A stretch of 55,764 bases of DNA, taken from the IMG/VR virus record IMGVR_UViG_3300033402_000018. One strand, written 5' to 3'. The translations under genes and the position numbers were made by a program. The notes beneath the pieces were generated by a model. The model was given only the letters and a program-made list of their open reading frames with translations, had not been told where the DNA came from and did not search any database. Each line of letters opens with the position of its first letter. Within the stretch, counting starts at the first letter, position 1. This document shows positions 19,855 through 21,417 of this stretch, one piece after another. This DNA comes from a virus.

Positions 19855-21417
19855 ATGATGACACCGCAGGAAGAACGAATTCTCAACGCGGCACGCCAAA
19901 AGATCGAAGAGCAGCAGGAATTGCTCAGACGCCTGACCGCCCCAGCCTACCACCTTGGGATCGTCTGCGGTGTGTATCCGAAGACCGTGGTTGTGGACAC
20001 AGGTTCCCAACTCTTTGAGCTTGACCGCATCGAAGGCGGACCAGACATCAAGGTTGGTCAGGGCGTTGACATTCATCCGCAGACCGGGCAGATCGCCAAA
20101 GTTTCAGACTTCGTTTCCTACGGAAGCACCGGGACGGTATCGCAGATCGACGGCAACATCATCCAGATCAGTGTTCCGTCCGGCCTCATCACCACCGAAT
20201 ATTCGCTCATCCCGGTAAGCATCGGCGACAAGATCGTGATGAACAGCACGAACCACGTCATCATGAAGAAGCTGCCGACCGCGTCGAAGTATGCCTTCAA
20301 GACGAGCGCCGTGCTGGACTGGAAAGACATCGGCGCTTGCGAAGACGCGAAAAAAGAACTTATCGCCGCGCTCGAAACGCCTTACACCGCATCGCCGCTG
20401 TTCAAATTCTTCAACAAGGATCAGATCAAAGGCGCACTACTTTGGGGACGCCCCGGCAACGGCAAGACTTTGCTTGGACGAGCCGCCGCTGGCGCACTGG
20501 CGCGTATGCACGGCGTGGAAGCTAGGGACTCAGGCTTTATCTACATCAAGGGGCCAGAAATCCTTGACAAGTACGTTGGCGAAACTGAATCTCAGATTCG
20601 CGAAGCTTTCGCCTATGCCAAAGCGCACTTCAAGAAACACGGCTATCCGGCTGTCATGTTCGTGGACGAAGCGGACGCCGTAATGATGCGCCGTGGTTCG
20701 CGCACCGCATCCGGCATGGAAATGACCATCGTCCCGCAGTTCCTTTCTGAGATGGACGGCATCGAAGACAGCGGCGTGTTCGTGCTGCTGGCTACCAACC
20801 GTGCGGATACGCTCGATCCGGCAATCATTCGTCCCGGTCGCTGCGACCGCCGCGTCCATGTGGCACCACCCAACAAGCTCAACGCCCCGGAGATTTGGGA
20901 CATTCACATGCGCAAAGTGCCTGTAACTAACGGCGTGAGCAAAGAACAGTTGATCCAGAGCGTGAATGACACGCTGTTCAGCGAGCAATTTCCGCTCTAT
21001 TTGATTGACACGCCCAACGGACGCAAGACGTTCAGCCTTGGGAATCTTGTGTCAGGCGCTATGATCGCGGGAGCCGTGGAACGGGCATCAGCCATTGGCA
21101 TTGACCGTAATCTCATGGCCCTGTGCGGCACAACTCAGCCGACGCAGGATCAGCTTGCAAAGGTTGACCCAAAGAAATTTGACGGTCTCTCGCAAGGGGA
21201 CTTCACCGCCGCGCTTGCCGCCATGCACAAAGAGCAGTACGGCATGAACCATTTCGATGAACTGCGTGAGTTTATCGACATGCAGAAGCTCGAAGTCACG
21301 TCCATTGAGCAATGCCACGATGGGCAAAAGATCGAACGCCCGAAGCCGCAGCCGCGCAAGGAACCAGAGATCATCGGTGTTATTCCAATGCCGACAGGGA
21401 AGAAGTTCGACGCATAA
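19855..21417 (+). CDS. Mpa/ARC-type (proteasome-associated-like) AAA+ unfoldase
   Basis: N-terminal coiled coil ([22 protein letters not shown]) plus OB-like segment. Walker A GRPGNGKT, Walker B [59 protein letters not shown] closely parallels Mpa IKGPELLNKFVGETERHIR..VVPQLLSEIDG..ASNREDMIDPAILRPGRLD. Confidence 0.85.
   Translation: [520 protein letters not shown]

Follow-up and report, generated by a model that had tools for sequence, protein, structure and literature searches.

Can a phage use the unfolding ring of the bacterial proteasome system without the proteasome, and if so, what would bring substrates to that ring? The question is raised by a gene in a 55,764-nucleotide stretch of viral DNA (IMG/VR virus record IMGVR_UViG_3300033402_000018), which we refer to at its full length as the window. 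In bacteria, the AAA+ ATPase Mpa/ARC is the Pup-dependent gateway to the 20S proteasome, and its recognition of substrates is well worked out. An original prediction, made from the sequence alone, had described one open reading frame (ORF) of the window as a phage-borne unfoldase of this type, possibly working without a 20S partner. This ORF is present with the sequence that had been quoted (Table 1), and our analysis adds conserved partners encoded directly downstream of it, which the prediction did not mention: small proteins that resemble Pup and carry cysteine tails, and a tiny membrane protein of the DUF1360 family. The identity of the ATPase and the existence of this cassette are, in our judgement, close to certain. 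Taking the locus as a whole, we infer a proteasome-independent unfoldase guided by Pup-like adaptors and acting at the membrane, a reading to which we assign a probability of roughly 0.55. We could not find this combination of ATPase, Pup-like cysteine-tailed proteins and tiny membrane protein described, and full-text searches of the literature returned nothing on an Mpa-like ATPase in phages, on Pup-like phage proteins or on a function for DUF1360.

The architecture of the ATPase was examined on an AlphaFold2 monomer model built from 54 homologues (mean predicted local distance difference test score, pLDDT, 88.1). In order along the chain, the model contains a helix (residues 4-27), two small barrels, the alpha/beta and lid subdomains of the AAA module, and a disordered tail from about residue 487. 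The N-terminal helix is consistent with the coiled coil that had been proposed: L10, A13, I17, Q20, L24 and L27 occupy heptad a/d positions, Q20, L24 and L27 are near-invariant among the 54 homologues, and the helix ends in an LTAPA junction between coiled coil and OB domain that is also found in genuine Mpa. The helix comprises only about 24 residues, with a clean heptad pattern in what is a model of a monomer. The one OB-like segment of the prediction corresponds to the first barrel (residues 33-84); a second barrel (residues 89-140), in the region of which G90 and G124 are invariant, had been overlooked. The Pfam OB-domain models PF17758 and PF16450 do not match the phage ATPase; they match 10 of 10 cellular orthologues. 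As anticipated, there is a single AAA module, and its motifs are intact. Walker A (G198-T205, GxxGxGKT), the pore loop K239-Y-V-G242, the Walker B pair D271/E272, the sensor-1 residue N315 and the arginine fingers R326/R329 are all invariant or near-invariant. The hairpin of the lid subdomain is formed by strands 380-386 and 389-394, and is followed by the invariant G401 and A402. Neither a transmembrane (TM) helix in the model nor an M41 peptidase among the Pfam domains was found. The protein would form a ring and act as a hexameric unfoldase.

Several comparisons place this protein in the lineage of Mpa/ARC. The comparison with hidden Markov models (HMMs) of AAA families that the original prediction had proposed puts TIGR03689 (pup_AAA, the proteasome ATPase) first among NCBIfam models at 229.1 bits (cutoff 504.75), ahead of CDC48 (170 bits, cutoff 803), PAN (155 bits) and FtsH (134 bits, cutoff 600), and TIGR03689 is the only model to span residues 9-421 of the ATPase (model positions 23-460 of 512). 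The best 30 Foldseek matches of the structure model are all Mpa of M. tuberculosis (E down to 8e-33, about 495 columns, TM-score 0.6-0.7), with 26S Rpt subunits as a second tier of shorter alignments (E about 1e-24, about 400 columns). A profile of the phage family gives 294 bits with Mpa, in a single alignment that extends from the OB region to about Mpa residue 587 and includes the C-terminal region. The N-terminal 150 amino acids (aa) alone gave no match among PDB sequences, and for this part the profile and the structure model were needed. Among 185,579 species genomes, the closest cellular relatives are 30-33% identical over residues ~5-461 and come from Verrucomicrobiota, Latescibacterota, Nitrospiria and Poribacteria. 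Ten of these loci contain UBact genes together with 14 Pup-ligase proteins and 9 proteasome subunits; as Pup ligase, 20S and UBact lie in the same operons, these relatives represent genuine Mpa. The prediction had taken an insertion before the IKGPE motif as a sign of Mpa; this segment, which follows the Walker-A helix, also occurs in four genuine orthologues and is missing from VAT D2 and Cdc48. Likewise, the lid hairpin with its SGAMIAG motif is aligned between the phage ATPase and the genuine orthologues. Thus, the best match is Mpa, and not FtsH, katanin or another clade lacking the coiled-coil/OB N-domain, and the placement in the Pup-proteasome lineage stands. The phage ATPase belongs to the Mpa/ARC lineage, without being an equivalog of Mpa.

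To investigate the genomic context of the ATPase, all ORFs of 83 related loci and of the window were clustered. One neighbour is conserved, a membrane protein of ~105-120 aa always encoded on the same strand, 73-785 bp downstream of the ATPase gene. This DUF1360 protein follows the ATPase in 31 loci of the viral set (window included) and in 10 loci from metagenome-assembled genomes (MAGs), the ATPases of which are 31-42% identical, and it is absent from true proteasome operons. The window protein matches PF07098 marginally (21.4 bits, cutoff 21), and of 107 homologues about half are labelled PF07098. The protein has an invariant C-P-[YW]-C-x-S-H-W motif at the start of the second TM helix. In the AlphaFold model (pLDDT 92.6), TM1 is followed by two amphipathic helices, by TM2 beginning at the CPxC and by TM3, and the CPxC-SHW motif faces the cytoplasm according to the positive-inside rule. 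An analogy of CP[YW]C to glutaredoxin, DsbB or VKOR was considered and set aside as speculation, with no fold or sequence match to support it. DUF1360 also occurs in mycobacteriophages.

Between the ATPase and DUF1360 genes there is almost always a small ORF with a cysteine tail; read in order, the cassette encodes the ATPase, one or two small disordered proteins and the DUF1360 protein. The three genes co-occur in 41 loci; by a strict rule, the small ORF occupies this position in 34 of the 41, compared with 3.2% of background small ORFs, and an HMM of the small proteins matches essentially only loci with DUF1360. In the window, ORF1 has a ribosome-binding site (GGGGA) 10 nt after the ATPase stop at 21417, the stop of ORF1 overlaps the start of ORF2 (TAATG), and ORF2 overlaps the DUF1360 gene (GTGA); the four genes are thus translationally coupled. 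The cysteine-knuckle motif of ORF2 occurs in 14 of 8470 plus-strand small ORFs, eight of which lie just downstream of an ATPase gene. A relationship of ORF2 to ORF1 as paralogues is a visual impression only, and the small-protein HMM does not detect ORF2. Other combinations were also seen. Five viral ATPase loci without a detectable DUF1360 gene (L034, L039, L041, L042 and L043) encode a different small ORF within ~30 nt of the ATPase stop, which has a C-x-C-G-x3-C-x-I-G-P motif and matches the small-protein HMM weakly (E 0.004-0.009), so that small cysteine-motif proteins may accompany this ATPase family beyond the DUF1360 cassette as well. A second AAA paralogue is encoded in L005 (13382..14941) and in L036 (8240..9733).

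The small proteins (60-100 aa) are of low complexity and have a common layout. A basic or glycine-rich N-terminus is followed by a central acidic amphipathic motif, IPxxDD[IL]Lxx[IL]DxA, and by cysteines close to or at the C-terminal end, in motifs such as CGC, CTCW, CGCF or CCCC. For example, ORF1 of the window has a basic low-complexity N-terminus (MSQRQIERPQEKKPRP), the acidic amphipathic motif (EEVDDILRDLDVIE) and a CxC (CQCF) near its end. This layout recalls Pup and UBact, and profile searches made with cellular sequences alone point in the same direction. An HMM built from cellular UBact only ranks ATPase-adjacent ORFs at the top of 17,406 small ORFs (best E 0.007), and an HMM built from actinobacterial Pup only, the Pup sequence behind it having been validated before use, places the cysteine-tailed proteins in the top four positions, and in seven of the top ten, among 19,021 small ORFs (best E 0.0097). 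The Pup models of Pfam and NCBIfam are the best, if sub-threshold, matches for three members. In hhalign, the small-protein family aligns with Pup positions 1-49 at 88.5% probability (P 2.7e-6, score 30.2), a stronger relationship than that between Pup and UBact (P 0.021). The score did not exceed 8.6 in 56 valid column-shuffle controls; four of the 60 shuffles had been discarded as a numerical artefact (~130 bits over 6 columns, Sum_probs 0).

For ORF1 of the window itself, the link to Pup is indirect. Direct Pup homology of ORF1 was considered and finds no support in Pfam or NCBIfam. ORF1 joins the wider small-protein family in a leave-clade-out test (HMM E 0.0025, hhalign 92.3%); a jackhmmer search from ORF1 retrieves only four close orthologues, and the wider link needed a curated alignment. 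ORF1 is among the least Pup-like members of the family. It ends in ..CQCFRPSRGGGFR, not in GGQ/GGE or R-[TS]-G-[QE], and in its clade (window and L001-L003) a conserved extension with the end ..(R/K)GGGFR comes after the CxC. By analogy with ubiquitin precursors, C-terminal processing after Gly-Gly is a possibility. Elsewhere in the family, L005 and L086 each encode two cysteine-tailed small proteins, and the second copy of L086 (3313..3558) is the most Pup-like of all (ETDKLLDEIDEILE ... CGSCWG). Because neither Pup ligase nor depupylase was found in the window or within +/-10 kb of the viral homologues, we regard isopeptide tagging through a C-terminal Glu as excluded. We conclude that the small proteins are, to judge from their sequences, probably Pup-like in layout and helix motif, whether by homology or by convergence, and without the ligation end.

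The mechanism that we propose connects these parts. A lineage of huge phages, along with many other uncultivated phages, would have taken over an Mpa/ARC unfoldase and uncoupled it from the proteasome and from the pupylation enzymes. When Pup binds Mpa, its helix docks on the coiled coil and its N-terminus is threaded (PMC8223512). In the same manner, the acidic amphipathic helix of the small protein would dock on the short coiled-coil arms above the OB ring, and its basic disordered N-terminus would enter the pore, where the KYVG pore loops could grip it. The CxC of the small protein may be joined to the CPxC-SHW that DUF1360 presents to the cytoplasm, by a metal site common to both or by a disulfide; such physical coupling through cysteines is perhaps possible, though doubtful. 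As an outcome, the ATP-driven unfoldase, with no 20S core, would be recruited to some component of the host inner membrane or would pull on it. A more specific and quite tentative version holds that this is a ligase-free phage counterpart of Pup-Mpa targeting, in which Pup-derived proteins have exchanged the GGQ/E end for a cysteine motif. That motif would link, by metal, disulfide or other thiol chemistry, to DUF1360 or to cargo, and the small proteins would feed the attached partner into the phage Mpa-like ring at the host inner membrane.

It should be emphasized that a number of observations weigh against this reading. With respect to the ATPase, about 90 N-terminal residues of Mpa are missing and the coiled coil is much shorter. 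With respect to the small proteins, every individual match to Pup or UBact lies below the curated threshold, and ORF1 of the window has no match to the Pup or UBact models (PF05639, TIGR03687, PF20513, NF033388) at E<=10. The hhalign comparison of the ORF1 clade alone with Pup gives P 0.0014, and a reversed-alignment control of the whole family reaches 21.1 even so (P 4e-4), a result of the simple composition of the motif; the likeness may thus stem from convergence or from chance composition. The fold of DUF1360 has no informative match among solved structures, and the contacts between helix and coiled coil and between cysteines are conjecture. The conserved C-terminal tail of the ATPase, as far as its sequence can be read, argues for some docking partner, and a protease partner may lie elsewhere in the genome, of which the 55.8-kb window represents about 12% if the probable size of ~450 kb is correct.

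These points feed directly into an alternative in which the small proteins are not Pup-like adaptors but unrelated cysteine-rich peptides, with metal-binding, lipid-modified or regulatory roles and a Pup likeness of composition only. The link between ATPase and DUF1360 would then be real, and the cassette might act at the membrane in another way, for instance in timing lysis, excluding superinfection or extracting membrane proteins. The low scores of even the best members (14-15 bits, with cutoffs of 27 in Pfam and 41 in NCBIfam), the level reached by the reversed control, and the replacement of the GGQ/E or RTGQ/E end by CxC in the absence of a ligase all fit this alternative. However, HMMs of Pup only and of UBact only, each searched against some 17-19 thousand ORFs, both put ATPase-adjacent ORFs first, and hhalign relates the phage family to Pup more strongly than it relates Pup to UBact. 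Moreover, the small proteins adjoin an ATPase of the Mpa type, to our knowledge the one ATPase family known to bind Pup. We therefore consider the alternative unlikely, and favor Pup-like adaptors.

An alternative of similar standing concerns the C-terminus of the ATPase. The prediction that it lacks GQYL was correct, as the protein ends in ..GKKFDA, with an aromatic residue at position -3 and not at the penultimate position. The tail is nevertheless not featureless. It follows a disordered linker (pLDDT <50 for residues 491-515); 41 close homologues end in K-x-[YFW]-D-A and ~20 in DPSK[LIV]N, both after [IV]P[IM]P, and the end is conserved across homologues that are 47-72% identical. The HbYX/GQYL motif by which ATPases dock on 20S has a penultimate aromatic residue (PMC8223512). 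The tail of the phage ATPase is thus laid out like a docking tail, so far as its residues allow a judgement, and does not follow the HbYX/GQYL pattern. This layout suits a scenario in which the ring is a true protease activator, docked by its tail onto a compartmental protease of the phage or the host (20S, HslV, ClpP or other), with the Pup-like small proteins serving as degradation tags or adaptors. A disordered tail with a conserved end resembles HbYX/GQYL docking tails (PMC8223512), and only about 12% of the probable 450-kb genome was available for inspection. On the other hand, apart from the position of the aromatic residue, the DPSK[LIV]N flavor contains no aromatic residue at all, and distant ATPase relatives that carry the cassette have no conserved tail. 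Genuine Gram-negative Mpa tails (..S[VI][IV]) are likewise unlike the phage tail. Searches for a partner were also negative. HMMs of Dop, PafA, PrcA and PrcB built from cellular operons, which recovered 45 and 18-19 cellular loci as positive controls, had no match at E<=1 either in the window or in the 10 kb on each side of the viral homologues, and no protease family is among the matches listed (25/29 Pfam families) in a survey of 95 window ORFs. This agrees with the expectation that the ring might work without a 20S partner. Docking to a protease is, for these reasons, improbable, and we retain the proteasome-independent unfoldase as the preferred reading. As a separate observation, genuine Mpa proteins of Verrucomicrobiota (among L106-L163) end in ..S-[VI]-[IV] (TSVI, SGII, GGVI) and not in GQYL; the 20S-docking motif of UBact-type systems thus appears to differ from that of actinobacteria.

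Is the contig that of a phage? The window, a complete JGI contig, contains 45 PHROG families (E<=1e-5), including ThyX, dCMP deaminases, NAD ligase, a Thg1-like protein, MazG and HNH endonucleases, of which there are two; its genes are short and almost all co-directional. Homologues of the ATPase at 60-70% identity are found in the same synteny on contigs of 448-465 kb and on one of 894 kb. On the ~450-kb contigs, this synteny comprises ThyX, dCMP deaminase, Thg1, HD, AAA, ligase, OmpA-domain and ABC genes, and a syntenic copy that is 62% identical lies on an IMG/VR viral contig. In total, IMG/VR holds at least 89 relatives of the ATPase on contigs of 13-572 kb, so that the view of such an ATPase as unusual for phages has to be given up. 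Genes for a capsid, portal, terminase or tail are missing from the window. A huge phage is, therefore, strongly suggested and not demonstrated, and the phage origin stated in the original prediction is upheld at that strength. With 24 kb of the window as query, megablast returned no match among deposited phages, and the full Mpa-like architecture was found neither among deposited cultured phages nor among the viral proteins of BFVD.

The lack of a virion gene in the window could also mean that the contig is a cellular genome or another mobile element, such as a CPR/DPANN-type symbiont or a megaplasmid, with the ATPase as a cellular paralogue of Mpa. Relatives that carry the cassette are binned in MAGs of Saccharibacteria, Peribacteria, Parcubacteria and Gammaproteobacteria, as this scenario would have it. 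However, binning of phage contigs into MAGs is a common artefact, and the PHROG families, HNH endonucleases, a cluster of five tRNA genes and the co-directional short genes, together with the synteny on ~450-kb contigs and the relatives on IMG/VR viral contigs, make a non-phage origin very unlikely. Finally, a reading of the ATPase as a common AAA+ protein from a different clade (Cdc48/VAT, FtsH, katanin/Vps4), with a superficial likeness to Mpa, is refuted. Some databases do label its relatives SpoVK/Ycf46/Vps4, and single-sequence phmmer against the PDB does place VAT and p97 first, but these outrank Mpa (143 bits) because the scores of two AAA domains (141 + 114 bits) are added. The match of the profile to Mpa forms one stretch, the full-length structural matches are to Mpa only, the Mpa-specific insertions and LTAPA are common to both, and the phage protein has a single AAA domain, where Cdc48/VAT/p97 combine tandem D1/D2 with an N-terminal double-psi barrel domain, and lacks the TM anchor and M41 zinc peptidase of FtsH.

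The implications of the preferred reading extend beyond this locus. An Mpa-type machine is common in uncultivated phages, from ~40 kb to more than 500 kb, where it occurs without proteasome and ligases and is fixed in a cassette. The principle of recognition between Pup and coiled coil may thus be reused outside pupylation, and DUF1360, a family without known function, gains a functional context that can be tested. The cassette suggests that the phage acts on the host membrane in a process requiring mechanical unfolding. If the proposed mechanism holds, the cassette would be a new means of directing substrates to an AAA+ unfoldase; the more specific, ligase-free version would amount to a new way of tagging them and would give DUF1360 its first function. 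Apart from the membrane protein of 103 aa, the components are soluble, and all are small, so that assays of binding, ATPase activity and unfolding are straightforward.

Table 1. Coordinates of the ATPase gene and its parts, of the other cassette genes and of further genes in the window.
Feature	Position	Strand	Basis
Mpa/ARC-like AAA+ ATPase gene, 520 aa, cassette gene 1	19855..21417	+	ORF, TIGR03689, AlphaFold2, Foldseek
N-terminal helix, residues 4-27, heptad a/d pattern, short coiled-coil arm	19864..19935	+	AlphaFold2, alignment
Small beta-barrel 1 (OB-like), residues 33-84	19951..20106	+	AlphaFold2 strands, full-length Foldseek alignments to Mpa
Small beta-barrel 2 (OB-like), residues 89-140	20119..20274	+	AlphaFold2 strands; tandem as in Mpa/ARC
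AAA core, residues 195-336	20437..20862	+	Pfam PF00004 E 5e-31, invariant motif residues
Walker A, residues 198-205	20446-20469	+	Within AAA core
Insertion after Walker-A helix, ~residues 214-226	20494..20532	+	Gap in VAT alignments
Pore loop KYVG, residues 239-242	20569-20580	+	Within AAA core
Walker B, residues 267-272	20653-20670	+	Within AAA core
Beta-hairpin insertion in lid subdomain, residues 380-394, then SGAMIAG	20992..21036	+	AlphaFold2, Mpa orthologue alignment
Disordered Pro-rich linker and conserved C-terminal tail, candidate docking tail	21313..21414	+	pLDDT, homologue ends
ORF1, 70 aa, Pup-like small protein	21427..21639	+	Ribosome-binding site GGGGA, orthologues in L001-L004
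ORF2, 105 aa, basic N-terminus, Cys-knuckle (CDINCECPPCISGDCSNC), clade-restricted accessory	21639..21956	+	ATG overlaps ORF1 stop
DUF1360 protein, 103 aa, three TM	21953..22264	+	PF07098, AlphaFold2; GTG overlaps ORF2 stop
Thg1-like tRNA-His guanylyltransferase	12352..13185
902-aa protein	16417..19125	+	No Pfam or PHROG match
HD_4 (RelA/SpoT-type HD) protein	19169..19798	+
606-aa protein with C-terminal OmpA peptidoglycan-binding domain	27507..29327	+
Five-tRNA cluster	35639..36311	+
Major Vault Protein (MVP) homologue, 815 aa	50013..52460	+	MVP_shoulder 3e-26, Vault_3 5e-11

Other genes of the window are also informative. The HD_4 gene, preceded by that of the 902-aa protein, lies directly upstream of the ATPase gene and is conserved there in the ~450-kb relatives. 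The OmpA-domain protein, encoded a few genes beyond the cassette and syntenic in L002/L003 (16407..18227), hints at a diderm host and at envelope-directed functions of this genome region. The vault homologue aligns by phmmer with solved MVP structures (E 3.6e-18, residues 457-703 on MVP 464-720) and has no PHROG match; a vault-shell protein is unusual on a phage contig. The tRNA cluster consists of four tRNA-Ser (GCT, CGA, GGA, TGA) and one tRNA-Leu (TAA); the tRNA-Ser set covers all serine codon boxes, which suggests codon-usage compensation by the phage. Genes for Fe-S assembly (Pfam NifU_N 8e-53 and IscA-like Fe-S_biosyn 9e-22) are present and may be relevant to the cysteine-rich cassette. 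The Thg1-like protein is accompanied in the window by a PHROG match to histidyl-tRNA synthetase, and a dual-specificity phosphatase, SprT-like, RlaP, nucleoside deoxyribosyltransferase, MazG and NUDIX proteins are also encoded.

Comparison with known systems helps to define what is shared and what is new. Other phages encode AAA+ proteins annotated as 'proteasome-associated ATPase', for example those of Brevundimonas phages Strzyga and Polewnik, which are 31% identical to the window ATPase over residues 141-473 (AAA and lid). Their N-terminus is unrelated, Gly/Pro-rich and without a coiled-coil/OB match, and they have neither a cysteine-tailed nor a DUF1360 neighbour; these phages were set aside as a cultured model, their proteins forming another subfamily without the cassette. 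FtsH is likewise an AAA+ protein with an AAA domain of the classic clade, and its action at the cytoplasmic face of the inner membrane is a functional analogy only for the role proposed for the cassette. FtsH fuses a TM anchor and an M41 peptidase to its ATPase, whereas the phage ATPase is soluble, has no peptidase and would be linked to the membrane through separate proteins. PAN and the 26S Rpt subunits have a coiled coil, putative in the phage ATPase, and share with it the OB ring and the single AAA module, but they have one OB domain, where the phage protein has two barrels, as well as an HbYX tail and no Mpa-type insertions.

The closest resemblance is to Mpa/ARC (TIGR03689; PDB 5KWA, 5KZF, 7PX9, 7PXC) itself. 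At 23-25% identity to Mpa of M. tuberculosis, the phage ATPase has an N-terminal helix that is a putative coiled coil, and the same LTAPA junction, tandem OB-like barrels, single AAA module, Walker-A insertion, lid hairpin and C-terminal helical region up to about Mpa residue 587, and a small Pup-like protein is encoded nearby. It differs in being phage-encoded, in lacking GQYL or a penultimate aromatic residue, and in adjoining cysteine-tailed small proteins and a DUF1360 membrane protein in place of 20S, Dop and PafA. The small proteins, for their part, differ from Pup (GGQ/GGE) and UBact (R-[TS]-G-[QE]) in having ends of the CxC, CC or CxCF type in essentially all members. Their N-terminus is similar to that of Pup and UBact (for instance, MSAQEQIKKRSHKGGGGGG compared with MAQEQTKRGGGGG of Pup), they have a comparable central [DE][DE][ILV]L-x-[DE]-[ILV]-D motif (VDDLLGEIDQLL compared with TDDLLDEIDDVLE of Pup), and, like Pup and UBact, they are encoded beside an ATPase of the Mpa type.

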